DNA of 64,000 nt, from positions 191,066 to 255,065 of the forward strand of contig CAZJVT010000002.1 of the NCBI GenBank assembly GCA_964549935.1, read 5' to 3'. A program made the position numbers and the translations under genes. Source of the DNA: an uncultured Candidatus Saccharibacteria bacterium. Its GTDB lineage: Bacteria; Patescibacteriota; Minisyncoccia; UBA6257; 1-14-0-10-44-23. A model generated the notes under the pieces. That model ran no database searches, had not been told where the DNA came from, and was given only the letters and a program-made list of their open reading frames with translations. Shown one piece after another: positions 1 through 43,337 of this stretch (position 1 is the stretch's first letter; every line of letters starts with the position of its first letter).

Positions 1-1670
1 CAGAGATCCCCTATCAGGTAAACAAGAGCGAGCTGCTGATGCGCATGGCCGAGCTCGTTACCGACAAAAAAATCGAGGGCGTCCGCGACATCCGCGACGA
101 AAGCGACAAGCACGGTATGAGCATCATCATCGAGCTCAAAAACGACGCCAACCCGCAAAAGATTTTGAACCAGTTGTTTGAATACACTGATTTGCAAAAG
201 AACTTTGCGGTCAACATGGTCGCACTTGGCGACGGCGGACTGCAGCCGCAGACGATGTCGCTTAAAGACATGCTCGTAGCCTTTATCGAACACCGTAAAC
301 TCGTCGTAAAGCGCCGCGCTGAATTTGACCTACGTAAAGCCAAAGAGCGTGAGCATATCTTAGAAGGTTTGGAGAAGGCACTCTCGAACATCGACAAAAT
401 CATCGCCCTGATTCGTAAAGCCGAAAACCGCGAGGAGGCGCACACCAACTTGATGAAGACCTTCAAGTTTAGCGACTTGCAGGCCACCGCCATTTTGGAC
501 ACCAAACTTGCAACGCTCGCCAGCCTGGAGCGCTTTAAGATTGAAGACGAATTGAAACAAAAGCGCGCACTCATCGAAGAGCTCGAGAGCCTGCTTAAGA
601 GCACGGCCAAGATTTTGACGGTCATCAAAAACGAGCTCAAAGAGGTCAAAGAAAAGTTTGGCGACGAGCGTCGCACCCGCGTAATCAGCGGCGGCATCAA
701 AGACTTCGCCGAGGAGGACTTAATCGCCAACGAAGAAACGATCATTACCCTCTCGCAGAGCGGCTACATCAAGCGTGTTCCACCGGGTAGCTTTAAAACG
801 CAGAATCGCGGAGGCAAAGGCCTTATTGGCTCCGACGTGGCCGACGACGACTTTATTTCGCACATCAAGTTCTCGCACACCCACGACAATATCTTGTTCT
901 TCACGGACCGTGGCCGCGTCTTCCAAACCAAAGTCTGGGAACTTCCGGCTGCCAGCCGTCAGAGCAAAGGTAAGCCGGTACACAACTTCCTGGAGATGCC
1001 GCTCGAGGAGCGCGTTAACGCCATCGTTACCTATCCGAACGATGTCAAAGGCAAAGATTTGACGAAGGAGTTCCTGGTGATGACGACCGTTCAGGGCATG
1101 ATCAAGAAAACCGCGCTCGCCGAGTTCCAAAACGTCCGCCGCTCCGGCATCATCGCCATTGGACTCCATAAAGACGACACCTTGCAGTGGGTTACCCGCT
1201 CAAACGGTGGCGACGAGATAATCATCACTACCCACGACGGTCAATCAATCCGCTTCCCGGAGAAGCAGGTTCGCCCGATGGGTCGTACCGCCAGCGGTGT
1301 TACCGCTATCAAGCTCAAAGGTAAAGACTTTGTCAGCTCGATGAACGTCATTACCAAAGAGCAGGCCAAGGACTTTAAGTTACTTGTCGTGATGAGCAAC
1401 GGTTACGGTAAACAAACGCCGCTTTCGCAGTACCGCGTCCAGAGCCGCTCCGGATCAGGTATTAAGACCGCCGAGGTTACTGCTAAGACCGGCGCCGTTA
1501 TGGATGCTCGCGTTATCAGCGAAGAAAAGGAGCTTATCGCCCTCTCCGCCAAAGGTCAGGTCATCCGTACCGACATCGCCTCGATTCGCATCGCCAGTCG
1601 CGCGACGCAGGGCGTCAGAATAATGAACGTAGAGAGCGGAGATCATGTCATCGGGGTAATCTGCTTCTAG
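1..1670 (+). CDS. gyrA: DNA gyrase subunit A, C-terminal portion (5' end lies outside window)
   Basis: ORF 39..1670 stays open in frame back to the window start (..IPYQVNKSELLMRMAELVTDKKIEGVRDIRDESDKHGM..), typical of GyrA after the coiled-coil, followed by C-terminal beta-pinwheel repeats. Confidence 0.9.
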   Translation, partial: EIPYQVNKSELLMRMAELVTDKKIEGVRDIRDESDKHGMSIIIELKNDANPQKILNQLFEYTDLQKNFAVNMVALGDGGLQPQTMSLKDMLVAFIEHRKLVVKRRAEFDLRKAKEREHILEGLEKALSNIDKIIALIRKAENREEAHTNLMKTFKFSDLQATAILDTKLATLASLERFKIEDELKQKRALIEELESLLKSTAKILTVIKNELKEVKEKFGDERRTRVISGGIKDFAEEDLIANEETIITLSQSGYIKRVPPGSFKTQNRGGKGLIGSDVADDDFISHIKFSHTHDNILFFTDRGRVFQTKVWELPAASRQSKGKPVHNFLEMPLEERVNAIVTYPNDVKGKDLTKEFLVMTTVQGMIKKTALAEFQNVRRSGIIAIGLHKDDTLQWVTRSNGGDEIIITTHDGQSIRFPEKQVRPMGRTASGVTAIKLKGKDFVSSMNVITKEQAKDFKLLVVMSNGYGKQTPLSQYRVQSRSGSGIKTAEVTAKTGAVMDARVISEEKELIALSAKGQVIRTDIASIRIASRATQGVRIMNVESGDHVIGVICF

Positions 1671-1695
1671 GACTTAAACCTAAAAACATACTCAC

Positions 1696-1727
1696 AAAGC
1701 CGCCTCGTTAAAAGGCGGCTTTGTGTT
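1696..1727 (+). terminator. Rho-independent terminator-like hairpin after gyrA
   Basis: aaagccgcc-tcgttaaa-aggcggcttt stem-loop followed by a T-rich run. Confidence 0.5.
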
Positions 1728-1739
1728 ATCATTAACTCT

Positions 1740-3053
1740 ATGCCTCCGCGTTTTACTCGTACGCAAATTGTTATTGCCGGCATTGTTCTGGCAATCATAC
1801 TGCTCGTCATCCTCATCGCCACCGGCATTATCCCGGGCCTTCGGCAAAAACAAACCGGTGACAAGTTAACCGGCGATCTCACCGTTTGGGGAGTTTTTGA
1901 TGATGAGGTCGCCATCAACAGCACCCTCATAACCGAATTCCGCAACAAACACCCTCAGGTAAACATCACCTATAAAAAAATTGACGAGCGCAGCTATGAA
2001 AGCGATCTCGTTAATGCGCTTGCCGCCGGCACAGGTCCGGATGTATTCATGGTTCAAAACACCTGGCTGCCGAAGCATTACAACAAGCTCTCGCCTCGTG
2101 ATCCAAAGCAGTTCAATCTGGTTAACTTCGGTGAGCTATACCCGCAGGTCGTAGTCAAAGATTTTTCGAAGGACGGCAAAGTTTATGCCATGCCGCTGTA
2201 TGTCGACACGCTTGCGTTGCTTTACAACAAAAACTTGTTTGACGCCGCCGGTATTGCCCAGGTTCCAAAGAGCTGGGACGACCTGGTAAACGCGATCCCA
2301 CTACTGCGCCGATTAGATGACGGCGGTCGGATTTCACAAGCCGCAGCGGCTATCGGTGGCAGTACTCGTACGATTAACGGCGCCAACGACTTGCTCTTCC
2401 AGCTGATGATGCAGTTCGGTTCACAGATGACCAATGAACAACACACCTCGGCTAACTTCGGCTATTCCGGCAAGCAGGCGCTGGATTACTACTTAAGCTT
2501 CGGCAACCAGCGCAGCCCGGCATACACCTGGGATTACGGCGTCCACTATTCAATCGATGCCTTCGCCGAAGAATCAGTGGCAATGCTTTTTAATTATGGG
2601 TATCAACTCCAGCAACTAAAAGAAAAAAATCCCTTCCTGCAAATTGGCGTCGCGCCGATGCTACAAAAAACGGGTACGACGAAGCCTATCACCTACGCAA
2701 ACTACTTCGGCTTGGGCGTTTCGGCGACGAGCAAAAACAAAACACTTTCTTGGCTCTTCGTCGACGAGGCAACCGTTGATCCTGCAACGAATGCAAAATA
2801 TTTAAACGCCACCCACCGATCCCCCGCGCTACGATCACTGATTGCGACTTCGATGAACGACCCGGAGGTTGGCGTGTTTGCCAGGCAGGCTCTCCAGGCC
2901 AACTCCTGGTACCAGGGCGACAGCACCGAAGTTAACAGTACGTTTACCTCTATGCTAGACTTAATCGTAAGCGGCCAATTGAGCACGAGCCGCGCCCTTG
3001 ACCAGGCGGAACAGCTCGTAACCGAGTCTTTGCGCAAAACCTCGGGCCAATAA
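1740..3053 (+). CDS. Extracellular solute-binding protein (ABC sugar-uptake type, SBP family 1)
   Basis: N-terminal transmembrane anchor followed by a solute-binding-protein-like domain (TVWGVFDDE.., GTGPDVFMVQNTWLPK, YAMPLYVDTLALLYNKNLF); 437 aa. Confidence 0.65.
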   Translation: MPPRFTRTQIVIAGIVLAIILLVILIATGIIPGLRQKQTGDKLTGDLTVWGVFDDEVAINSTLITEFRNKHPQVNITYKKIDERSYESDLVNALAAGTGPDVFMVQNTWLPKHYNKLSPRDPKQFNLVNFGELYPQVVVKDFSKDGKVYAMPLYVDTLALLYNKNLFDAAGIAQVPKSWDDLVNAIPLLRRLDDGGRISQAAAAIGGSTRTINGANDLLFQLMMQFGSQMTNEQHTSANFGYSGKQALDYYLSFGNQRSPAYTWDYGVHYSIDAFAEESVAMLFNYGYQLQQLKEKNPFLQIGVAPMLQKTGTTKPITYANYFGLGVSATSKNKTLSWLFVDEATVDPATNAKYLNATHRSPALRSLIATSMNDPEVGVFARQALQANSWYQGDSTEVNSTFTSMLDLIVSGQLSTSRALDQAEQLVTESLRKTSGQ

Positions 3054-3054
3054 T

Positions 3055-3537
3055 ATGAAACTTCGACCAGCCAAACTCTCGCTCGCGATTTTACTGCTAA
3101 GTAGTATTTTAGTGACGGCAACTCCAGCCATTGTCGCGGCGGCAGATTTAGATGTTAACCCGGCAACGACCAGCTTGGCTAACGGCATTATGCCTGCTTG
3201 CGACCCGGGTTACAGCGATTTAAAGGGTGGGACGATAGGGCCAAAGGGCCTCCCTGCCTGCGGCGTGACGCAAGCCCTTCAGCTTATCTATAACATCATA
3301 AAATACGTTACTTACATCATCATCCCTATCGCCGTATTGCTCATTGGTTACGCCGGGTTTACGATTATGACCTCCGCCGGAGAGGCTGAAAAGATAAGTC
3401 AGGCGAAACACATGATCCAGCTCCTGGCTATTGGCATCGCTATTATTCTTCTCTCGACACTTATCGTTCAGTACGTATTTAAAGCAGTTGGCGTGCAGTC
3501 GACTAATATAACTAATATCACGCCGGGTGCGAAATAA
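3055..3537 (+). CDS. TrbC/VirB2-like T4SS-type pilin, paralog 1
   Basis: signal peptide, two hydrophobic helices, conserved core YAGFTIMTSAGEAEKISQAKHMI; the mature N-terminal region carries a Cys pair. Confidence 0.6.
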   Translation: MKLRPAKLSLAILLLSSILVTATPAIVAAADLDVNPATTSLANGIMPACDPGYSDLKGGTIGPKGLPACGVTQALQLIYNIIKYVTYIIIPIAVLLIGYAGFTIMTSAGEAEKISQAKHMIQLLAIGIAIILLSTLIVQYVFKAVGVQSTNITNITPGAK

Positions 3538-3538
3538 T

Positions 3539-3886
3539 ATGAAATGGCTCACCTCGATTTTCTTGCTTCTTGGAACTAAGCTCGCTTTTGCCGCAGACAA
3601 AGTCACTCTTCCCAATCCCCTCTGCCCTGAAAATGATCCGACCTGTAAAACCTCTCTCCCGGATATCATTCACAGCGTTTTTCATTTTTTGGCAATCGAC
3701 ATTGGCCCGCTTGTGGTCATCATTTTCGTACTTGTTGGCGCCTACCAGATGATTTTTAGCGGCGGCGAAGCGGAAAAATTCACAAAAGGTAAAACTACTA
3801 TCGTTTACACCGTCGTCGGTTACGCCGTCCTCTTAATGGCCAATGGTATTGCCGCGATTATCCAAACAATCTTAACCGGTAAGTAA
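3539..3886 (+). CDS. TrbC/VirB2-like T4SS-type pilin, paralog 2
   Basis: start taken as the ATG at 3539 (the ORF-track start at 3527 is GTG); motif AYQMIFSGGEAEKFTKGKTTIVYTVVGYAVL. Confidence 0.6.
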   Translation: MKWLTSIFLLLGTKLAFAADKVTLPNPLCPENDPTCKTSLPDIIHSVFHFLAIDIGPLVVIIFVLVGAYQMIFSGGEAEKFTKGKTTIVYTVVGYAVLLMANGIAAIIQTILTGK

Positions 3887-3889
3887 TAC

Positions 3890-4234
3890 ATGCAAACTAT
3901 GAAAAGACTTGCAGCAAGACTGACTGTGCTCGCCTTGACCTCAGCCCCACTTCTTGCCTTCGCCCAAGACGTCGGCGATGACGGGTTGCCGAAAACGACG
4001 AAGGATGTTATGACCATACTCGGCCGAATCGGCGACTGGCTTTTTACCGGACTGCTCATTATAAGTGTTATAATGTTGATAGTAGCCGGATACAAGTATT
4101 TGTTCTCACAAGGAAGCGAAGAGCAGACGACCTCGGCAAAAAATACTATTGTTTATGCGGTTATTGCCCTAGCGGTGGCAATGCTAGCCGGTGGAATCCC
4201 GTATCTCGTCAAGTCAATCCTTCAAGTTAAATAA
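3890..4234 (+). CDS. TrbC/VirB2-like T4SS-type pilin, paralog 3
   Basis: signal peptide; motif GYKYLFSQGSEEQTTSAKNTIVYAVIALAVAML. Confidence 0.6.
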   Translation: MQTMKRLAARLTVLALTSAPLLAFAQDVGDDGLPKTTKDVMTILGRIGDWLFTGLLIISVIMLIVAGYKYLFSQGSEEQTTSAKNTIVYAVIALAVAMLAGGIPYLVKSILQVK

Positions 4235-4256
4235 AAATAAATAACATTAATATCGT

Positions 4257-4679
4257 ATGAAGAAATTATTGACAGCTCTCGCGCTCGCTGGAATTACGCT
4301 AAGTTTCGCCGCACCTCTCGTCCTTGCTCAACCGGCGGGATCAATTACCTGCCCTACGGGCATCTCTGTTTCGGCTGGCACGCCCTGCCCATTACCAGAC
4401 AAAATCCTTGGCGGCGACGTAACAAATCTTGGCGGTGGCAGCTTTGTTGCTTTACTTCAGACGATTACTAACTGGATGTTTACTTTCCTGCTAGTGTTCG
4501 CTGTAATCATCTTCATCTACGCAGCTTATAAGTATCTTTTCTCTGGAGGCAACGAAGAAGGCACAACTGCCGCAAAGAACTACCTCATTTATGGCGTTAT
4601 CGCTATCGCAGTTGCGATGATGGCAAAAGGTATAACCTTTATCGTCGCCGAACTCTTAGGAGCAACGACTACGAAATAG
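4257..4679 (+). CDS. TrbC/VirB2-like T4SS-type pilin, paralog 4
   Basis: signal peptide; CPTGISVSAGTPCP Cys pair; motif AYKYLFSGGNEEGTTAAKNYLIYGVIAIAVAMM. Confidence 0.6.
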   Translation: MKKLLTALALAGITLSFAAPLVLAQPAGSITCPTGISVSAGTPCPLPDKILGGDVTNLGGGSFVALLQTITNWMFTFLLVFAVIIFIYAAYKYLFSGGNEEGTTAAKNYLIYGVIAIAVAMMAKGITFIVAELLGATTTK

Positions 4680-4704
4680 TTTTTTTTCTGTAACTGTATC
4701 CACT

Positions 4705-4728
4705 AAAAACCGCCTTCGGGCGGTTTTT
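4705..4728 (+). terminator. Rho-independent terminator after pilin paralog 4
   Basis: aaaaaccgcc-ttcg-ggcggttttt perfect hairpin followed by a T-run; the high-GC block starts immediately downstream. Confidence 0.7.
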
Positions 4729-4838
4729 AGCTTGATATAAAAACGACAGAAGCCCGGCCGGTGACATCCTCCCTTTTGGGGAGGAGCACCGAACCGGGCT
4801 TCAACTGCGCGTCGCCTTACGTCGACGCGCGAACGACT

Positions 4839-5387
4839 CTACCAGGCTTCTACGCTGAAGCGCTGGTTCACGGCCCTGACCTGAACGTAGAACGTCCCGG
4901 TCGAAGTCGTATCCCAAGCTATCCCGGCCCGAGCTTCGAATGGGTTGCCGTCCCCATTCTCAAGCAGGACCTGATAGCCCAGGTTGTCCGGCGCTCGAAT
5001 CTTGAAGCGCATGCCGCCGGAGACATGCACTCTGACCCACTGCCCGGGAAGCAGTGCGTCGGGAAACGACTTTTCTCCCGGAGAGTCCAGCGTCACGCTC
5101 GCGACCGGAACTTCCGGCGGAGTGTGCGCTTTCGGTGTGTGACTCGCCGCCACACCGACTGCGGCTTCCTTCTTGACTGCCTGCTCGACCGTGAAGTCGT
5201 GCGGCAGTTCAGGTGCAGTGGGTTTCCGGCTCTGGTAGAGCAGGTAGACCGCCGCGCCAATCAGCGCCCCCCAGAGGAGAAAGTACCTCAAGAGAACGAC
5301 CGCCCCCGGAAACGGGGGTTCCATCCCCTTCGGCAGCCGCCCTGCGGACTCCGCCTCGGGCGTAGCAGCATGTGCGTCGCCGCTCAT
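4839..5387 (-). CDS. Hypothetical membrane-anchored protein (high-GC cassette A, gene 2)
   Basis: 182 aa with one transmembrane helix (VVLLRYFLLWGALIGAAVYLLY); about 65% GC; its start overlaps the stop of the upstream gene by 4 bp, suggesting translational coupling. Confidence 0.55.
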   Translation of the reverse strand: MSGDAHAATPEAESAGRLPKGMEPPFPGAVVLLRYFLLWGALIGAAVYLLYQSRKPTAPELPHDFTVEQAVKKEAAVGVAASHTPKAHTPPEVPVASVTLDSPGEKSFPDALLPGQWVRVHVSGGMRFKIRAPDNLGYQVLLENGDGNPFEARAGIAWDTTSTGTFYVQVRAVNQRFSVEAW

Positions 5388-7216
5388 CGCGTACCTCCTC
5401 TTCTGCCAGCGAGTTCGCGCAGCGTCACGATGACGTCAGCGCCGATGCCGTTCGCGGTCACGATCTCCTCGTGAACATCCCGCTTCACGACACCGTCTTC
5501 GGCCAGGACAGCCTCTCTCGCCTTCTGCTTGATCTCGTCGCTCACTCCTGCGAAGGCAGTGAGCGCCTCCAGGTCCGTCACCTTGTCCGGTGACGCCCAG
5601 CGAGCCATGCGCAGCACCCGATTATTGGTCGTAACCAGGTCGGCGCCGGCCTTGTTCTCGGCTTCCAGTCGCTTGAGATCTTTCTGGATGAGAGCGACCG
5701 AACGAGCAACAAGAATCTCAAGCCACTTCCCGGTGGGCATGAGCTTGGTCAGGTTCAACCGCGTGATGATCACGCCGAAGACCTTGACCTTGATGTGCGC
5801 CCGCCCCTGCTCGAGGGCGTCCGCCATCTGATCCCGCGCCCAGAGGTAAGCCTCGAGGCGCTGGCCAACAAACTGCTTGGCCGCGGCCAGGTCACGGTAT
5901 CCCATCCCGGCCACGACCGCGAGGATCTTGGCCTTGACGGCGTCGATCGTCTTGAAGTCGGATCCCTTGAGATCCTCCTCCTTGACGTCTTCGCGGTGCC
6001 AGAGGCGCACCAGGAACGTCGGTACGCCCGGGACGACCTCCTTGGGCTTCGCCAGGAACTTGCGCTTCGCCTTCGCGACGCGCTTCTCCTCGGCGCGAAC
6101 CTCCACGGGAGTCGTGGGTGCGACAGGCGGGACAGGCGAGACGAACACGAGGTCCGCGCCCAACTCATTCGCACCGAGATGGTGCTCGTGAGCCCAGTGC
6201 GCGATGTGCCCCGTGATGACCGGCCAGAATTGATCCGGATACAGCTCCTTGACGATCGCCAAGGCGCCGCGACGGATTGCTCCGGGGACCTCCTCGCCGT
6301 ACTGCGGCCCGCTTGTGGGCGAGCGCAGCCACCGACGATACGACTCATTGAGCTGGTCGATCAGCTTCGGCAAAACGCCGGCAATGAACCCCTCATGCTT
6401 GAACGGCAAGAGACGGTTCGAGTCAGCCATGATGCCGATGCCCAAGTTGCCCGTGAAGGTGCTGTCCTCCGGGCCGAGAATCGGTTCCTCCTTGGAACCG
6501 ATGCAGGGATTGAAGTCCCCACCACTTACGTCCACCGGCTCCGGCTTGAACAGCCACCAGAGCAGCGGAATGCGAGCGCGACCTTCGAGAGGCTTGATCG
6601 CCGAAAGCATGATCCCGTTGAAGTCCAGGAATGCCTTCGTTTCCGGGTGTGATACCGAAAACCGCGCATACCCCTCGAACTTGTACGCGTCGTACAAGAC
6701 CCAGGAGATGATCGGAGCCGCGACGAGCGCCAGAGGCAACCAAGCCCCCATCGCCAGACACAGCACGATCGCGATTACAGTCCCCACCACGAAGCAAACA
6801 GTCCGAGCCCGCGCGTCGAACTCGGCGAGAATCGGGCCGAACTCCAGATGCGGGATCACGTCGTGGTGACCTCCCCCGCCAGGATGTTCGTCGTCATCGC
6901 CGAGTTCGGCGTGAGCACAGTGCCCCCGCGAACAGTTGATCGCCTCCTGCAGATGCGTGAGTGGTGGCCAGAGCCACCCCATCGCGCGCCCGACGTTGAA
7001 GGACAGCGGTGCGCCGGGCGGCGCAGCCGTACCGCGCATCTGCCACCAGCGAACCAGAGTATAGACGTTCAGCCCGATCGCCACGAAGGCGCCGAGCAGG
7101 CACGCCAGCTTCACCCAGGGATTCATCGTTCCGCGATCGGAGATCGCAGCGTACAACGAGTACGCAGCGCCGACGAACGCAGCGACGAGACCAACGAGCT
7201 TCAGGATTCTACGCAT
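5384..7216 (-). CDS. Hypothetical multi-pass membrane protein with His/Asp-rich loop and C-terminal coiled/SPFH-like region (high-GC cassette A, gene 1)
   Basis: 610 aa; N-terminal transmembrane helices; HAELGDDDEHPGGGGHHD loop; C-terminal region with IKVKVFGVIITRLNLTKL and KDLKRLEAENKAGADL, reminiscent of band-7/SPFH; about 65% GC; spurious antisense ORFs appear across it. Confidence 0.55.
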   Translation of the reverse strand: MRRILKLVGLVAAFVGAAYSLYAAISDRGTMNPWVKLACLLGAFVAIGLNVYTLVRWWQMRGTAAPPGAPLSFNVGRAMGWLWPPLTHLQEAINCSRGHCAHAELGDDDEHPGGGGHHDVIPHLEFGPILAEFDARARTVCFVVGTVIAIVLCLAMGAWLPLALVAAPIISWVLYDAYKFEGYARFSVSHPETKAFLDFNGIMLSAIKPLEGRARIPLLWWLFKPEPVDVSGGDFNPCIGSKEEPILGPEDSTFTGNLGIGIMADSNRLLPFKHEGFIAGVLPKLIDQLNESYRRWLRSPTSGPQYGEEVPGAIRRGALAIVKELYPDQFWPVITGHIAHWAHEHHLGANELGADLVFVSPVPPVAPTTPVEVRAEEKRVAKAKRKFLAKPKEVVPGVPTFLVRLWHREDVKEEDLKGSDFKTIDAVKAKILAVVAGMGYRDLAAAKQFVGQRLEAYLWARDQMADALEQGRAHIKVKVFGVIITRLNLTKLMPTGKWLEILVARSVALIQKDLKRLEAENKAGADLVTTNNRVLRMARWASPDKVTDLEALTAFAGVSDEIKQKAREAVLAEDGVVKRDVHEEIVTANGIGADVIVTLRELAGRRGGTR

Positions 7217-7698
7217 CTCTGTCTCCTCGACCCGCCTATGGCGGGTCAGAATATCTGACCCGCACCGCGGGCCTCGGTTTGGGTCCCGAGACCCTTTACC
7301 CGCGTCACAACAAGTGACGTTAGGGTCCCTCGTCTCCTGCTACCCCGCAATGGGGCAGGCCACGAAACAGGGATTTTGGGATCGATCATCGATTTTCGAC
7401 CCCAAAACTCCTGCTTCGTGCTTCAGAACACGAGAGATCCCTCAAAACCTAAGTTTTAAGGGCTTTTTAGCCCTCCTCCAATGAGGTTAAGGCGCTGTCA
7501 AAGAGCGGTCTTTACTGAACATATAGTATAGCATACTAATACTAATTTGTCAAGTATTAGGCGCTTTTTGCACTTTTTGGTCAATCAGTAAAAATCACGA
7601 ACAAATAAGCTCAAGTTTATCCACTGCCCTGCTCAAAAATAACTTCACGTATGTTATACTGAATGTAACGAATTAATTTTTACTATTAAAAACATCGT

Positions 7699-8046
7699 AT
7701 GAAGAAAACGTTACTCGCTCTTAGCACTATCGCAATGGTCGGACTGACTCCGCTCGCCGCTTTTGCAGTTGATATTCCGGCTACCACACCTGGCCCGGGC
7801 ATCCGCAGCTTCGAAGGCATTCTTAATGTGCTCGACACCGTCATCAACTGGATGTTCACGCTCCTGCTCGTTATGGCAGTAGTTATGATCATTTACGCCG
7901 CGTTTAGCTACTTGACCGCCGGCGGTGACGAGGAGAAGGTTGGCAAGGCGCACAAGGCTATCATCTACGCCGTCGTCGCTATCGCCGTCGCCTTCCTCTC
8001 AAAGGGCATCTCGTTCGTCGTCGCACAGCTTTTGGGGCAAGGATAG
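7699..8046 (+). CDS. TrbC/VirB2-like T4SS-type pilin, paralog 5
   Basis: signal peptide; motif AFSYLTAGGDEEKVGKAHKAIIYAVVAIAVAFL; separated from paralogs 1-4 by the high-GC insert. Confidence 0.6.
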   Translation: MKKTLLALSTIAMVGLTPLAAFAVDIPATTPGPGIRSFEGILNVLDTVINWMFTLLLVMAVVMIIYAAFSYLTAGGDEEKVGKAHKAIIYAVVAIAVAFLSKGISFVVAQLLGQG

Positions 8047-8142
8047 TACGTGTAACGTTAGACGTGAAACTTGCAACTTTCAAAACCGCGACGCCAGTCG
8101 CGGTTTTGATTTTGGGGCGAAAATAAGCGATACTACAACAAT

Positions 8143-8223
8143 GCTGGGGTGGCGAAATGGCAGACGCATCAGCCTTAGGAGCTGAAGCCGCGAGGCATGT
8201 GGGTTCAAGTCCCACCCCCAGCA
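8143..8223 (+). tRNA. tRNA-Leu (anticodon TAG)
   Basis: manual fold: acceptor GCTGGGG/CCCCAGC; anticodon stem TCAGC/GCTGA with loop CTTAGGA; 13-nt variable arm; T-arm GTGGG-TTCAAGT-CCCAC; discriminator A; CCA not encoded. Confidence 0.8.
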
Positions 8224-8371
8224 CAAAAACCAAAACACGGCCTTTAGGTCGTTCTTTGGTTTTTGTGCTTAGATGGACTTGAATCGTCGGACCGGAAATT
8301 TTCAGTATAAAATTTCGGGGAGAGGGTGCCCAGACCAACTGGGCGCGACGGCGCACAGTTGAGTCGAGGGC

Positions 8372-8390
8372 AAGTCCCACCCCCAGCACC
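8372..8390 (+). repeat. 19-bp direct repeat of the tRNA-Leu 3' end (att-like)
   Basis: caagtcccacccccagcac at 8372..8390 matches tRNA positions 8205..8223 exactly; the copy is followed by cca. Confidence 0.6.
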
Positions 8391-8464
8391 AACGAAAAAG
8401 TCCGGTCTTTGCTGGTTCTTTTTTGTCTTTGAGCTGACTAACTGTCGACTGACTAACCGACAAC

Positions 8465-9385
8465 TCATCTCCTCTGCCCGTGAAATTTCTTATGCACATC
8501 TCCTAATTGTTTGTTGGTCAGGTGCGTGTAAATTTGCGTCGTCGAGATATTGCTGTGGCCCAGCAGCTCCTGCACACTGCGCAGGTCGGCGCCATTTACG
8601 AGTAGGTCGGTGGCAAACAAGTGGCGCAGCTTGTGTGGCGTAACGTGCTCCGCGATGCCGGCCTTACGAGTGTAGTAATTAACCAGACGCTGCACAGCGC
8701 GCGGCGTGATCTTACCGATAACTTTTGGCGGTTTTTGCGACTTCTTGGGAACCTTACTTAAACTCACAAACATCCACTCGAGCGCGTCCCCGCGCTTATC
8801 CAAATACTTTTTAATCGTGGCCTTGCAGCTATCTGAAAAAAACACGACGCGCAGCTTCTCTCCCTTGCCGCGCACAGTAATCTCGCCGCGACTTAAGTCG
8901 AGATAACGGCTAAGCCCGCAGAGCTCAGAGACACGCAGCCCGGTTGAAAAAAGCGTCTCTAATACCGCTCGGTCGCGCAGCGCACGCAATCCCTCCCCTT
9001 CGGGTGCGCTCATCAGGCGCTCAAAGTCGCGATACTCCGGGATAGCAATCTGCCTTTGGGCAATCTTTGGTAACTCGATCTTATCGGCAGCTAAGACTTT
9101 ATAATCATGCTTGGCCAGATACTTTAAAAAGCTACGCAGCGCAATGACGTAGTAATTTTGAGTCACCTTTTTCATCGTTCCACCCCGGCCACTATCCATT
9201 GTCGACATTTTTACACGAAATGATTTCACGGCACGCTCGGTAATGTCCGACTCTGACTTAATCCCTGCGTCCTTTAAAAACACCTTGAGATAGTGCTCGT
9301 AGTTGCGCCGTGTTTTAGGCGACCGGCCCTTTTCGACGGTCAGATAGTCTAAGTAGTCTTGCAGGAGCTCCTCAATTTTCGCCAT
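8465..9385 (-). CDS. Tyrosine recombinase, XerC/XerD-family integrase
   Basis: 306 aa; C-terminal catalytic motifs LRHLFATDLLVNGADLRSVQELLGHSNISTTQIYTHL; N-terminal SAM-like domain; lies next to the tRNA-Leu direct repeat. Confidence 0.8.
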   Translation of the reverse strand: MAKIEELLQDYLDYLTVEKGRSPKTRRNYEHYLKVFLKDAGIKSESDITERAVKSFRVKMSTMDSGRGGTMKKVTQNYYVIALRSFLKYLAKHDYKVLAADKIELPKIAQRQIAIPEYRDFERLMSAPEGEGLRALRDRAVLETLFSTGLRVSELCGLSRYLDLSRGEITVRGKGEKLRVVFFSDSCKATIKKYLDKRGDALEWMFVSLSKVPKKSQKPPKVIGKITPRAVQRLVNYYTRKAGIAEHVTPHKLRHLFATDLLVNGADLRSVQELLGHSNISTTQIYTHLTNKQLGDVHKKFHGQRR

Positions 9386-41213: not shown

Positions 41214-41936
41214 ATGACTAAACTACTCTATTTAGAAAACTGGAACACGCTCACCTCACAAGCACTCATTACTGAAATCACGACCTATCAAGACAAACCG
41301 GCGCTCGTCCTCGACCAAACCGTCTTCTATCCACAAGGCGGCGGTCAGCCCTGGGACACGGGCACCATTGCCGGGCCACAGGGCACCTTTGACGTTCAAG
41401 CAGTGCGATTTGATAATGGCATCGTCTACCACCTTGGCGCCTTTACCTCCGGCACAATGCAAGCCGGCGAAACCGTTACCTGCAGTGTCGACCCGGACCG
41501 ACGCAACCTTAATAACAGACTGCACTCCGGCGGTCACGTCTTGGATATGGGCGTGCTCCTGCTCAAACTCAACTGGATTCCGGGTAAGGGCTACCACTTC
41601 CCCGACGGTCCGTACGTTGAGTACGCCGGGAGCCTGAATGGGCTGGATAAAGAAAAATTAAAAGTTGATCTCGAGACGGCAGCCAACAAATTCGTAACTG
41701 AAAACCGGCCTACGAGCATCCGCTTTATGCCGAAAGAAAAAATGCACGAGGTCTGCCACCACGTGCCTGATTATCTGCCGGAGGGCAAGCCGGCCCGCGT
41801 CGTGATGTACGGCGATTTCGGCGTACCGTGCGGCGGCACACACGTGAATGCGCTTGGCGAAATTGGCCACCTGACTATTCGTAAAATTAAACAGGAAGGC
41901 GATAAAATCAGGGTCGGCTACGACGTGAGTCGGTAG
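41214..41936 (+). CDS. alaX: AlaX-type alanyl-tRNA editing protein (Ser-tRNA(Ala) deacylase-like)
   Basis: FYPQGGGQPWDTG plus HxxxH (HSGGH) and CGGTH zinc motifs of the AlaRS editing/second-additional domain; 240 aa. Confidence 0.75.
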   Translation: MTKLLYLENWNTLTSQALITEITTYQDKPALVLDQTVFYPQGGGQPWDTGTIAGPQGTFDVQAVRFDNGIVYHLGAFTSGTMQAGETVTCSVDPDRRNLNNRLHSGGHVLDMGVLLLKLNWIPGKGYHFPDGPYVEYAGSLNGLDKEKLKVDLETAANKFVTENRPTSIRFMPKEKMHEVCHHVPDYLPEGKPARVVMYGDFGVPCGGTHVNALGEIGHLTIRKIKQEGDKIRVGYDVSR

Positions 41937-42001
41937 CGTTGCGCTCCGGCCAGGCTTTTGGTAGGGTCAGGGAGTCCCTGGGCACCGACAAGGAGGTCAC
42001 G

Positions 42002-42754
42002 TTGCGCGTTATCAAGAAAGGCCCGCTGCTTCGAGTCGCCGCAGTGGCGACCGGCGGCGGATCAACCGTGAAGGCGGTCCTCGAGCAGTGTCTCCCCGGC
42101 GGTAGACTGCACGGCCTCGTGGAGGTCGCAGTCATCGTCGGGACCAGGCCTGGCATCGAGGCGCTGGAACGCCCGAAGCAGGTCGTCGGAATGGAACACG
42201 TCCCGACTCGCGTTGTCGAGCGCAAGCTCGGCACGAAGACGGAGGTCCGGTTCGGCAAAGAGCTGATGAAGGTCTTCAATCAGTTCGACGTCGACATGTT
42301 CGCGCTCCTGGGATGCATCCCGACGATCCCAGGAAACGTCCTGGAAAAGTTCGTCGGAACCAACCAGCACCCTGCCCCACCGCAGCGCTTCGGCGGGAAG
42401 GGCTGGCACGGCATCCTGCCCTACGCTGCACAGCTCTACTACGTCCAGGACCTGGGTGCCAAGCACCCTGCGATCGTGGTGTCGCAGTGGGTCGCACCCG
42501 AAGTGGACGGTGGCAGCGTGATCCACTACGGGGAGGTCCCCATCCTCGACGGGGACACCCCGGAAGCGCTCCGCGACCGAGGACTGCCTGTCGAATGGGC
42601 GGTTCAGGTCGAGACGCTTCGGCGTCTCGCGACGGACACGGCCGAAGAAACGCCGTGCCCCTACAGTTGCACCCCGATGTCAGGAACCCGGGCGGGGGTC
42701 GCACTCGAGAATGCCAAGGCGCGTGCCTTGGCCGAGTACGGCCACCACAAGTAA
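42002..42754 (+). CDS. Formyltransferase-family protein (PurN/Fmt-like), high-GC cassette C
   Basis: VAAVATGGGSTVKAVLEQ plus NQHPAPPQRFGGKGWHGI resemble the PurN GS-N-LQAL and N-HPSLLP-F-G motifs; about 65% GC; AAGGAGG ribosome-binding site then TTG at 42002 (the ORF track opens at 41939, 2 bp after the alaX stop). Confidence 0.5.
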   Translation: MRVIKKGPLLRVAAVATGGGSTVKAVLEQCLPGGRLHGLVEVAVIVGTRPGIEALERPKQVVGMEHVPTRVVERKLGTKTEVRFGKELMKVFNQFDVDMFALLGCIPTIPGNVLEKFVGTNQHPAPPQRFGGKGWHGILPYAAQLYYVQDLGAKHPAIVVSQWVAPEVDGGSVIHYGEVPILDGDTPEALRDRGLPVEWAVQVETLRRLATDTAEETPCPYSCTPMSGTRAGVALENAKARALAEYGHHK

Positions 42755-42823
42755 CGGAGGAGAGCCTCGAGCTCCGGGGCGCCGACAGGCGCCCCGGAGA
42801 CTCACTTCAAAAAGATTTAAACA

Positions 42824-42856
42824 CAAAACCCGCCTTTCGGCGGGTTTTGTGTTTTC
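42824..42856. terminator. Bidirectional Rho-independent terminator
   Basis: aaacccgcc-tttc-ggcgggttttgtgtttt. Confidence 0.65.
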
Positions 42857-42860
42857 TTAC

Positions 42861-43337
42861 CTAATCAACGTTGTACTTAACGGTTACCTCCACTACCCGC
42901 TTACCCCAGGCAAGCGCAGCAGAGTGACTAGTCATCCAGATATCGAAGTGCGGCTTATCCATCGTGAGGTTAGTAGCATGGTCAAACTTACGAGCCATAC
43001 GGTCACCACACGTGTAATCACGGCCGTTAATCGTCACCTTCGTACCGAACGCATACTCACGACTGCAAGCAACCATACCATCGTACACCTCATGACCGTT
43101 AGCGGCGATAAACGGATCACGGTCGGTCTGACCAATCTCCGAGTTATAAGCAGTAACAGTAGCGGTGAAATGCTCAACGACGGTCTTCGGCATCACCTTC
43201 TCAACGATAGCGGAAACCGCCTTGTTGATGGAGTCCGGTCCATACATACCGATTGAGGGCTGCGCAACCGCGGCCGGAATCGGGAGCATGGCAACGAGAG
43301 CCACTGCGACGAGAACCTTTGCGATTGTGTTTTTCAT
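42861..43337 (-). CDS. Secreted 3D-domain protein (MltA/YuiC-like cell-wall-binding)
   Basis: signal peptide; VTAYNSEIGQTDRDPFIAANG..DYTCGDRMARKFD..FDIWM conserved Asp triad; 158 aa. Confidence 0.65.
   Translation of the reverse strand: MKNTIAKVLVAVALVAMLPIPAAVAQPSIGMYGPDSINKAVSAIVEKVMPKTVVEHFTATVTAYNSEIGQTDRDPFIAANGHEVYDGMVACSREYAFGTKVTINGRDYTCGDRMARKFDHATNLTMDKPHFDIWMTSHSAALAWGKRVVEVTVKYNVD

Follow-up and report, generated by a model that had tools for sequence, protein, structure and literature searches.

A two-gene membrane operon with a structured leader RNA, conserved in position inside the VirB2-type pilin array of one Patescibacteria clade

Arrays of VirB2-type pilin genes occur widely among Patescibacteria. 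According to PMC12102498, an earlier report had found one such array to be essential for Ca. Southlakia epibionticum ML1, an epibiont that is in culture. Five pilin paralogs matching PF18895 are encoded in the 64,000-nucleotide stretch of DNA analysed here (the window), and a non-pilin unit, consisting of two translationally coupled genes on the minus strand, separates paralogs 4 and 5. Is this unit a cassette inserted into this genome, as the earlier note had proposed, or an inherited part of the pilin locus, and what might it encode? The reading preferred here, considered slightly more likely than not, is that the unit is an accessory operon belonging to the VirB2-type pilin locus and conserved within one Patescibacteria (CPR) clade, and not a recent insertion. 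The features of the locus are as follows:

3055..4730, plus strand: VirB2-type pilin paralogs 1-4 (PF18895 T4SS_pilin matches) with the pilin-4 terminator
4739..4830, minus strand: 3' end of the operon, with an 8-bp hairpin (4807-4830), then a GC-rich long hairpin (4749-4802) and U5 (4739-4743)
4839..5387, minus strand: gene 2, 182 aa, coupled to gene 1
5384..7216, minus strand: gene 1, 610 aa, recognised as an ORF with a coding signature
7217..7518, minus strand: structured 5' leader, ~300 nt, its start deduced from the promoter position
7223..7228, minus strand: Shine-Dalgarno sequence GAGGAG, 6 nt upstream of the gene 1 ATG
7323..7441, minus strand: three-way-junction core of the leader, with closing stem P1, long hairpin P2 and short hairpin P3
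7361..7420, minus strand: P2, a 24-bp hairpin with a sequence-conserved basal stem (CACGAAGCAGG / CCUGUUUCGUG) and a covarying distal stem
7525..7553, minus strand: sigma-70-type operon promoter (TTGACA, 17 nt, TGcTATACT as extended -10)
7699-8046, plus strand: pilin paralog 5 (PF18895 T4SS_pilin)
8143-8224, plus strand: tRNA-Leu(tag), right flank
8465-9385, minus strand: XerD-type recombinase, right flank

The two genes overlap in the ATGA at 5384-5387 and form an operon with its own promoter, a structured leader of ~300 nt and a terminator. The ORFs, the overlap, the deviant GC and the flanks of a self-contained membrane operon inside the pilin paralog array were thus all recovered as first described, as was the perfect terminator of pilin paralog 4 at the left of the block (12-bp stem, 4703-4730). 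The right-hand side had to be redrawn. The leader had been given as GC-rich and 480 bp long; 7217..7500 amounts to 284 nt, 482 bp is the length of the whole intergenic gap between gene 1 and pilin 5, and the GC content of the whole leader is only ~55%. In the AT-rich stretch taken for the pilin 5 promoter lies a minus-strand promoter of sigma-70 type that belongs to the operon itself; a promoter scan gave 11/12 matches for it. At the other end, the fold of 4731-4845 (minus strand) was computed at -59.7 kcal/mol (z = -6.2); this is the operon's intrinsic terminator, and it stands back-to-back with that of pilin 4. An integron gene cassette was considered for the hairpins at 4749-4830 and was rejected: the RYYYAAC...GTTRRRY core of an attC site is missing from them, and the neighbouring recombinase has the XerC/D domain set, not that of IntI. 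Logan contigs of three sequencing runs (SRR14271331, SRR14271332 and SRR14271336) matched window positions 3745-4944, 4120-5241, 1-7119 and 6206-8175 with 100% identity; both junctions are spanned by them, and the arrangement is therefore not an assembly chimera.

The two-gene block has 63% GC, compared with 52% for the window. When measured in 400-nt windows, GC stood at 0.60-0.67 over ~4800-7400 (whole-window mean 0.518, sd 0.043), with an abrupt step at ~4750 on the left and a gradual fall over 7350-7500 on the right. The frame of gene 1 was accepted as coding because its codon-position GC (.66/.44/.79) is constant along the ORF, and ORFs overlapping it in other frames were dismissed as high-GC artefacts.

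The gene pair was sought as a conserved neighbourhood in other genomes, a check that had been proposed, and was found in six related Patescibacteria genomes (L127, L130, L131, L132, L134 and L136), as a large and a small gene in the same slot and the same orientation, with XerD proteins 69-88% identical. These and the window make up the positional set (n=7). The right-hand boundary of the slot (7699..9385: pilin 5, tRNA-Leu, XerD) is kept, the relatives having the same neighbours. The pairs measure 610+182 aa in the window and 352+199, 416+198, 446+246, 417+160, 366+228 and 535+207 aa in the other six, and the 4-bp gene overlap is present in the window, L130, L132 and L136. The -35 and extended -10 boxes can be aligned in the window, L127, L130 and L131, and L134 and L136 carry variant forms; the leader is the best-conserved part of the module across the relatives. 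Since slot, orientation, small protein, promoter and leader are kept in the relatives, the module is an inherited, lineage-wide part of the locus, and the proposed insertion of a cassette into this genome is not upheld. A recently acquired islet or mobile cassette is likewise not supported: the slot is filled in 6/6 relatives, no terminal repeats, direct repeats or target duplications were found at the block, mobility genes are absent from it, and the adjacent recombinase is of the conserved XerD type with ordinary GC.

The sequence of the module has changed far more than its position. Between the window and L127, XerD is 87% and RmuC 84% identical, whereas the module proteins are at ~28%, which is noise level. 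The rate at which the two proteins evolve, or are exchanged, is far above that of the neighbouring genes. Their composition is also set apart in every genome: all 14 module genes of the seven genomes have GC of 0.59-0.66 and GC3 of 0.69-0.90, against a locus GC of 0.49-0.55. The earlier note had contrasted its cassette with a common housekeeping membrane complex present in related CPR genomes at uniform GC; presence in relatives and a weak homology to a membrane-scaffold family (see below) were indeed found, but the GC is not uniform, being raised in 7/7 genomes. The persistently high GC3 is not accounted for by simple vertical inheritance. In more distant CPR loci (L001 and L004/L060), higher-GC, Pfam-less ORFs were observed after the pilin arrays.

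These data bear on a history in which the module was acquired horizontally, recently or recurrently, at a recombination-prone site near tRNA-Leu/XerD, with different alleles imported into different genomes from a high-GC donor pool. Such a history is regarded as unlikely, even though GC and GC3 lie well above the host in all genomes, searches among billions of proteins gave no homologue of the window proteins, every locus has a tRNA-Leu gene no more than about 1 kb from the module and the higher-GC ORFs of L001 and L004/L060 add to the pattern. The similarities are moreover incongruent: XerD places L127 nearest the window (87%) and L132 more distant (75%), whereas the substrate-binding protein (SBP) and the small protein place L132 nearest (67% and 34%) and L127 farther (51% and 28%). 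Against acquisition, slot, orientation, promoter and leader RNA are all conserved across the genomes, which points to descent of the unit from a common ancestor and not to independent insertions; the promoter is host-like, no terminal repeats or target duplications were found at the block, and no second copy of the module turned up, whether in the rest of the window or in collections of phages, plasmids, viruses and metagenomes. The preferred reading of an accessory operon leaves room for allelic exchange of a homologous module.

A scan of the leader for RNA structure and against Rfam had been recommended. The minus-strand fold of 7217-7500 was computed at -152.9 kcal/mol (z = -10.4), and a second leader computation gave z = -14.6; coding windows of the same block lay at z -1 to -3.5, with one at -6. 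The leaders of 7/7 genomes, 188-324 nt in length, gave z values of -5.8 to -14.6. The same three-way junction was obtained in independent MFE folds of the window, L130, L131 and L127, and P2 plus P3 in those of L132 and L134. When P1 and P3 were aligned by hand, in a fold-derived alignment that is illustrative only, 18/23 pairs differed on both sides between genomes. The inverted repeat quoted for the leader is present, with 30-nt arms, at 7361-7420 and corresponds to P2. In the P2 alignment (six genomes), 95.6% of the cells are paired and 12/24 pairs are changed on both sides; 0/500 shuffles reached the observed values, slid controls paired at ~40%, and the same structure was returned by RNAalifold. 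None of the 4,227 Rfam families was matched, the window leader giving only chance-level scores at E <= 10, and in the loci of the six relatives tRNAs alone reached the gathering score. The leader is a previously undescribed structured RNA motif with covariation support, found in one CPR clade so far; as the RNA alignment holds six genomes and the family seven, the covariation statistics are to be taken as indicative rather than definitive.

The inverted repeat of P2 might act as DNA: a dimeric regulator could use it as an operator, or it could be a site of recombination or replication. Its 60 bp form a near-palindrome flanked by divergent promoters, and the basal arms are conserved in sequence like a protein-binding site. 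This option is nevertheless held to be very unlikely. Pairing in P2 is better in the sense (130/136 cells) than in the antisense direction (118/136), with fifteen G-U cells, and the covariance model scored the sense strand 13-36 bits above the antisense strand. The distal stem is free to change in sequence while complementarity is kept, the flanking helices P1 and P3 persist despite sequence differences, and the repeat lies downstream of a conserved promoter, inside a leader that is strongly structured in 7/7 genomes. In the full-length fold the Shine-Dalgarno sequence pairs with a CUCUUU close to the leader's 5' end (unpaired probability 0-0.3); occlusion of the ribosome-binding site is thus predicted for this genome, and the folds of the relatives are not consistent on this point.

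Neither protein could be assigned to a known family, in agreement with the first description: searches of both against Pfam, NCBIfam, PADLOC, PHROGs and PDB sequences gave no match, and searches against 5.8 billion clusters and 1.84 billion representatives returned self-matches only. Gene 2 encodes, as described, a 182-aa single-pass membrane protein, in which an acidic/His N-terminal tail is followed by one transmembrane helix (about 27-54), an Ala/Pro-rich linker and a C-terminal beta-sandwich of ~90 aa. This layout is common to all the small proteins, which are recognisably homologous across the genomes (gene 2 against the small proteins of L132, E 3e-9, and L127, E 2e-5; L130 against L131, E 4e-5). 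A profile of the small proteins retrieved nothing relevant from the PDB. The interpretation of gene 2 as an NfeD-type OB-like beta-barrel was rejected: 0/7 small proteins matched the NfeD profile (PF01957) at E <= 1, and the fold search does not give NfeD.

Gene 1 shows the N-terminal transmembrane helices and the metal-binding-like loop noticed earlier, with hydrophobic segments at 3-26, 33-56 and 135-175 (2 plus 2 helices), a Cys/His/Asp-rich loop CSRGHCAHAELGDDDEHPGGGGHHD at residues 94-123 and a large soluble domain thereafter. The SPFH/band-7 character guessed for it found indirect support in the relatives and no direct match: Band_7 was not detected in gene 1 with Pfam (whole protein E <= 1, per domain E <= 10), nor was anything found by hhalign with a small HflK/HflC/QmcA profile. 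Band_7 (PF01145) was matched by 4/7 large proteins (best E 1.7e-5) and is the only Pfam family matched by more than one member. The scores of L132 (19.4 bits), L130 (18.5) and L127 (12.5) lie below the curated threshold of 23.6 bits; their alignments cover profile positions ~4-167 of 176 and begin immediately after the membrane anchor. A weak link of gene 1 to the L130/L136 subgroup was obtained by two routes. With an HMM of the large proteins of L130 and L136 it was the top non-member among ~6,330 ORFs (E 3.7e-4, next 1.8), and BLASTP against the large protein of L136 gave two collinear HSPs (E 8e-4 and 2e-3); with a six-member HMM the signal was lost (E 2.5). A C-terminal GG motif is invariant in 7/7 large proteins. 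An AF2 single-sequence model of gene 1 was unusable (pLDDT 39). On sequence grounds gene 1 is probably a hyper-divergent SPFH/Band-7 protein, the link being transitive at E ~1e-3 to 1e-4.

It is also conceivable, if improbable, that the large proteins have a new fold and that the Band_7 matches are compositional or coiled-coil noise. The sub-threshold scores of L127, L130 and L132, the lack of any match for gene 1 and L131 and the hhalign probability of <1% would fit this. Noise is harder to reconcile with four members that each rank Band_7 top, at near-full profile coverage directly behind the membrane anchor, with the precomputed annotation of L136, which lists Band_7, and with a family-profile search of the PDB, in which stomatin chains, although weak (E about 2), were the sole coherent family. 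The grammar of the operon is, in addition, that of SPFH-partner pairs.

For the accessory operon, the following course is proposed. A host-type promoter would drive the ~300-nt three-way-junction leader, which would run into the two coupled genes and probably control expression after transcription start. Gene 1 would supply a polytopic membrane protein, most likely an extremely diverged SPFH/Band-7 protein, and gene 2 a single-pass partner with a small beta-sandwich, binding-type domain. By analogy with SPFH-partner operons such as qmcA-ybbJ, oligomers of the large protein may form a ring or cage attached to the membrane and enclose a patch of it, in or on which the small partner would sit. 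Since the position inside the pilin array is fixed, the patch could plausibly serve pilin or pilus handling or cell-surface contact; it is this position that suggests a link to the pilins. Counting against such a link, T4SS localisation in Agrobacterium was independent of SPFH proteins (PMC8656257).

Two bolder functions were weighed against this proposal. In one, the module is a new pilus-associated system in which a conserved RNA, read by a conserved host factor or by a signal linked to host contact, gates a membrane scaffold and a surface-binding partner, both kept hypervariable and distinct in composition through recurrent allelic exchange or diversifying selection, with the RNA and the flanking pilin genes as constant anchors of that exchange; in the epibiotic lifestyle it would then determine specificity or immunity and not be a housekeeping scaffold. 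This is speculative and is given a low probability. The other, an anti-phage or exclusion module (phage defence, superinfection or entry exclusion) whose divergence is driven by an arms race, is thought to be quite improbable. It would suit the extreme sequence turnover beside conserved neighbours, the membrane location of both proteins and the binding-type beta-sandwich of the small one, and the pilins themselves are described as highly variable in PMC12102498. The module is, on the other hand, fixed and single-copy in the locus and not part of a variable defence island, it is devoid of an enzymatic or effector domain, PADLOC and PHROGs gave no matches, and the BFVD fold matches were weak.

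With the accessory operon, a fixed two-gene unit is now defined inside a VirB2-type pilin array, and its hyper-divergent proteins are nonetheless held in place behind a conserved RNA. They are invisible to homology searches because divergence between near relatives is at noise level; synteny found homologues that searches of 15 billion proteins had overlooked. For the pilus system of this uncultured lineage, the pair offers candidates for a membrane scaffold and a surface-binding partner, the leader motif can be searched directly by covariance model, and high GC3 with hyper-divergence at a syntenic locus bears on how surface functions may be gained and diversified in reduced genomes.

The module was compared with known systems, the closest in layout being the SPFH-partner operons E. 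coli qmcA-ybbJ, B. subtilis floT(yuaG)-yuaF and Pyrococcus PH1511-PH1510. As in SPFH and NfeD-type operons, the gene for a large membrane-anchored protein precedes that for a small membrane protein with a beta domain at its C-terminus; qmcA-ybbJ shares the order, with the SPFH gene first, and the 4-bp stop/start overlap, and Band_7 is the sole recurrent family among the large proteins of the module. Unlike SPFH proteins, gene 1 lies below every SPFH threshold, has four predicted membrane helices and a Cys/His/Asp loop and is much longer (~250 aa of insertions), and gene 2 is not NfeD by sequence (0/7) or fold search. The operons also differ in the noise-level identity of the module proteins where the neighbours are 75-87% identical, in the high GC3 of all module genomes and in the long conserved leader RNA, a feature that SPFH operons are not known to have.

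In Pseudomonas aeruginosa, pilA is accompanied by group-specific accessory genes beside tRNA-Thr. These islands resemble the present locus as a variable accessory set of deviant composition in a tRNA-bounded pilin locus, with similarity incongruent between the left and the right flank. They belong to type IV pili, whereas the pilins here are VirB2-type; no glycosyltransferase or known pilin-modifying domain is found in the module, which is homologous across genomes and does not consist of unrelated alternatives. With the pilin arrays of PMC12102498 the window shares a non-pilin unit among PF18895 paralogs; the interrupting genes are not characterised in the available portion of that paper, whereas here they make up a defined module of two genes, equipped with a promoter, a leader RNA and a terminator of its own and lying on the opposite strand in a clade-conserved position. 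The leader, finally, resembles Rfam riboswitches, ribosomal-protein leaders and RNA thermometers in its long covarying structure between promoter and start codon, and Rfam cis-regulatory leaders in the Shine-Dalgarno occlusion predicted for this genome, and differs from them in belonging to 0/4,227 families. Unlike in riboswitch-type leaders, the helix sequence is conserved and the junction nucleotides are not; a protein or RNase target therefore fits better than a small-molecule pocket, and a conserved RNA-binding factor or RNase would be the likeliest sensor.

The high-GC block between pilin paralogs 4 and 5 reads as a complete transcription unit (promoter, leader, ribosome-binding site, two genes and terminator). 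Its elements are the following:

7553..7525, minus strand: operon promoter, sigma-70-type, TTGACA-17-TGcTATACT
5384..7216, minus strand: gene 1, ORF of 610 aa
4839..5387, minus strand: gene 2, ORF of 182 aa

A leader of approximately 300 nt lies between the promoter and gene 1, the ribosome-binding site of which is GAGGAG, and the two reading frames share an ATGA overlap. At the 3' end of the operon two hairpins, the second followed by U5, abut the terminator of pilin paralog 4 back-to-back. The GC content is 0.60-0.67 from approximately 4800 to 7400 (window mean 0.518, sd 0.043). In gene 1 the GC by codon position (.66/.44/.79) stays even along the whole ORF, so this frame was taken as the true one and the many overlapping ORFs as high-GC artefacts. 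Both flanks are VirB2-type pilins (PF18895); to the right of the pilin block follow tRNA-Leu and then a XerD-type recombinase, and elsewhere the window carries ordinary CPR chromosomal genes (GyrA, RNase Y, iPGM, ValRS, ClpB, IF-2). Both block junctions were recovered at 100% identity in Logan assemblies of three separate runs, and an assembly chimera is therefore ruled out. The ORFs, their overlap, the GC content and the reproduced junctions together confirm the coupled two-gene block described in the earlier note. Pilin 5 seems to have an extended -10 of the module type (TGtTATACT, approximately 7647-7656, in the upstream region 7636-7698), in which case the 482-bp gap would carry two divergent promoters of similar kind.

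Contigs of relatives were chosen via the neighbouring XerD-type recombinase (close relatives 69-92% identical). Six further genomes (GCA_964641225.1, GCA_034680565.1, GCA_040384425.1, GCA_023255625.1, the Logan assembly of SRR22077898, and GCA_040960315.1) share the order gyrA, solute-binding protein (SBP), pilin array, opposite-strand gene pair, optional last pilin, tRNA-Leu and XerD. The pair consists of a large and a small gene in each (352+199, 416+198, 446+246, 417+160, 366+228 and 535+207 aa), frequently with a 4-bp overlap. The search for a conserved gene neighbourhood was thus successful by synteny, and the route via XerD recovered module homologues that homology searches had missed. 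Because the same slot is filled in six further genomes, the block belongs, on gene order, to the inherited make-up of the locus in this clade and is no insertion peculiar to the window genome. The reading as a foreign insertion is supported only in part: the deviant GC holds and extends to all 14 module genes (GC 0.59-0.66, GC3 0.69-0.90; loci GC 0.49-0.55), but a cassette inserted into this genome is not supported. An "empty site" in L054, a relative with 67% SBP, was discarded, since its contig merely ends 250 bp past pilin 4. A transposon, IS or integron cassette was rejected (the block lacks terminal inverted repeats, target duplications and attC cores and has no second copy in the window), as was a tRNA-Leu island served by the neighbouring recombinase, which is of a highly conserved XerD type with ordinary GC, present in thousands of CPR genomes.

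In every genome a tRNA of 82-83 nt lies approximately 0.1-1 kb from the module promoter, and the last pilin gene between the two is present in some genomes and absent in others. The tRNAs adjoining the module, in the window and in the six loci of relatives that carry the gene pair, are:

Window, 8143-8224: tRNA-Leu
L127, 10958-11039: tRNA
L130, 12461-12543: tRNA
L131, 4675-4756: tRNA
L132, 11726-11807: tRNA
L134, 1051-1133: tRNA
L136, 12119-12200: tRNA

Between XerD and the module, L130 (10974-12368) has an extra 313-aa ORF (GC 0.62, no Pfam match) and a 114-aa ORF, so the slot evidently has room for further genes. Contig L128 (SRR14271332_98436) carries at 2105-2170 a leader hairpin of the L127 type, in a sister lineage with an L127-type XerD; run SRR14271332 holds this lineage as well as the window organism, and two module variants therefore coexist in one community. 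The run accessions, looked up in the literature, gave no environmental source. Behind the gyrA-SBP-pilin array of more distant CPR loci (L001 12365-14866; L004 5040-9039, identical to L060 13930-17929) higher-GC, Pfam-less ORFs were found, several of them membrane proteins; those of L001 and L004 were rejected as module relatives, being non-homologous. The GyrA of some relatives (L056 5794-9870 and L136 19367-20930; products of 1358 and 1292 aa) is interrupted by an intein bearing LAGLIDADG domains; the window GyrA has none.

The surface-related block evolves fast overall, and the module fastest. L127 is 87% identical to the window in XerD, 84% in RmuC, 73% in pilin 5 and 51% in SBP, with approximately 28% for the module proteins, a value at the noise level for global alignments. 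The corresponding values for L132 are 75% (XerD), 80% (RmuC), 73% (pilin 5), 67% (SBP) and 34% (small protein). Of these two loci, L127 is closest to the window in XerD, whereas L132 is closest in SBP and small protein. SBP, pilins and module on the left thus have a history different from that of the tRNA and XerD onward on the right, which points to recombination. The incongruent flanks (window 1740-3053 versus 8465-9385) suggest a recombination breakpoint that separates the pilins from the tRNA and XerD. The high GC3 may, as one possibility, stem from exchange with a high-GC allele pool; no donor was found. Recurrent horizontal replacement of the module is the rival to inheritance at the locus: the GC signature and the differing block histories are compatible with it, and the constant slot and gene order are what inheritance predicts. 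No homologue of the module proteins turned up in phages or plasmids (tblastn) or in the viral and metagenome contigs scanned, and the exact leader motifs were not found in viral contigs. A second high-GC island of the window (41750-43000, GC 0.63-0.65) holds a 271-aa ORF (41939..42754, plus strand) with a Formyl_trans_N domain and a module-like codon-position GC of.70/.45/.81.

The leader is, by alignment, the most conserved part of the module. In the aligned upstream regions the promoter, the 5' segment CUUUGACA and the basal arms of the long hairpin (CACGAARCAGG / CCUGUUUCGUG) are conserved among the genomes, and the distal stem varies in sequence with pairing kept (GGGGUCGA/UCGAUCCC, GUAGCCAA/UUGGUUAC, AUAGCUGA/UCAGCUAU). 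Over six genomes the 24-bp helix (7361..7420, minus strand, in the window) is 95.6% paired with 12 pairs altered on both sides; this pairing was reached by 0 of 500 shuffles, slid controls were approximately 40% paired, and RNAalifold recovered the same hairpin unaided. A palindrome acting at the DNA level is the rival reading of the inverted repeat; pairing was 118/136 on the antisense strand versus 130/136 on the sense strand, owing to fifteen G-U cells, and the covariance model scored the sense strand 13-36 bits above the antisense. In 1.1 Mb of sequence this model matched these loci only. An RNA structure is the reading followed here. In the independent MFE folds of four genomes the hairpin is part of a three-way junction, alongside a short second hairpin and closed by a further stem; two more genomes have both the long and the short hairpin but close them differently. 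The flanking junction helices vary in sequence between genomes, and their alignment, being taken from the folds, illustrates the structure and is no test of it. All seven leaders (188-324 nt) gave z values of -5.8 to -14.6. The structure and covariance scan proposed for the leader thus yielded what is, on covariation, a new structured RNA motif, with no match in Rfam. Readings as a retron (no reverse transcriptase) or a type III toxin-antitoxin system (no tandem repeats) were rejected. Conservation falls on the helix sequence and not on the junction nucleotides, so recognition by a protein or RNase seems likelier than a pocket for a small molecule. In the predicted full-length fold of the window leader the Shine-Dalgarno sequence is paired with CUCUUU near the 5' end; as this occlusion varies among relatives, it is treated as a hypothesis.

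Neither protein had been assignable by eye, and this held: searches of Pfam, NCBIfam, PADLOC, PHROGs and PDB sequences gave no match for gene 1 or gene 2, whole or per domain, and direct family assignment was abandoned. Among 5.8 billion clusters a word-indexed search matched both only to themselves, and the 1.84 billion representatives searched in full with HMMER (gene 1 only) contained no relative besides the protein itself. Gene 1 has hydrophobic helices at 3-26 and 33-56 and, at 135-175, a hydrophobic segment of double length, with a Cys/His/Asp-rich loop between hydrophobic helices. The soluble region that follows is 435 aa long and includes another His cluster (GHIAHWAHEHH) as well as a Pro-rich linker. 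Structure prediction, advised for both proteins, was usable for gene 2 (a single transmembrane helix joined by a disordered linker to a beta-sandwich of approximately 90 aa, pLDDT 70-83) but not for gene 1 (single-sequence AF2, pLDDT 39). The aligned small proteins begin with acidic, often His-rich tails (MSGDAHAATPE, MTEAHAPHAEEEHGHDADE, MSDSHGAHGGG), which resemble the loop and His cluster of gene 1, so that metal binding may be common to both proteins. The short C-terminal tail of each of the seven large proteins contains an invariant Gly-Gly (RRGGTR, LGGKR, RGGK, HGGSHH, KGGSK, HGGGH, TGGSTT; gene 1 end at window 5384-5410), possibly a signal for processing or assembly.

The small proteins are homologous to one another by pairwise comparison (gene 2 versus L132, 30% over 117 aa, E 3e-9; gene 2 versus L127, E 2e-5; L130 versus L131, E 4e-5) and have a common layout in 7/7 genomes. 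Significant pairwise similarity among the large proteins was confined to L130/L136 (E 1e-20) and L132/L134 (E 4e-50). The sole family matched by more than one of them was Pfam Band_7 (SPFH; 4/7, best E 1.7e-5), with L132 (E 0.0012), L130 (0.0022) and L127 (0.16) aligned over nearly the whole profile directly behind the membrane anchor; L136 was also flagged in a precomputed annotation table. A PDB search with a profile of all seven returned stomatin chains, weakly. With the L130 + L136 HMM, gene 1 ranked top (E 3.7e-4) among approximately 6,330 unrelated ORFs, the next of which reached 1.8, and BLASTP against the L136 large protein gave two collinear HSPs, one of which spans a G-R-A-x-I...G-V-I-I stretch aligned with the SPFH-domain end in relatives. 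The large proteins might alternatively have a non-SPFH fold: gene 1 itself lacks a Band_7 match, and an E. coli HflK/HflC/QmcA profile, together with hhalign, was blank both for gene 1 and for small alignments of the relatives. Given the Band_7 and stomatin matches and the HMM and BLASTP links, the family is rated SPFH-like with fair confidence and gene 1 a probable member. The SPFH/band-7-like region previously ascribed to gene 1 is thereby indirectly backed through its relatives, though not by a match of its own. NfeD, a partner of SPFH proteins, was rejected as the identity of the small protein (0/7 by sequence, none by fold search).

SPFH proteins are established membrane scaffolds that form rings or cages. 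By analogy, the large protein would be an SPFH-type membrane scaffold with the beta-sandwich partner as its client or adaptor, a function inferred for the module as a whole. A defence or exclusion role is the rival reading, with which the fast evolution of the surface-related block is compatible; PADLOC was blank for both proteins. Only its fixed position within the VirB2 array ties the module to pilus function. T4SS components of Agrobacterium co-fractionate with SPFH-containing membranes, yet are independent of those SPFH proteins (PMC8656257), and the precedent for a pilus link is therefore weak. With fair confidence, the pair represents a new, extremely diverged form of SPFH-type scaffold plus partner, and its arrangement matches that of SPFH-partner operons such as E. 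coli qmcA-ybbJ, in which the gene of an anchored SPFH-like protein comes first and is coupled to that of a small membrane protein bearing a beta domain.
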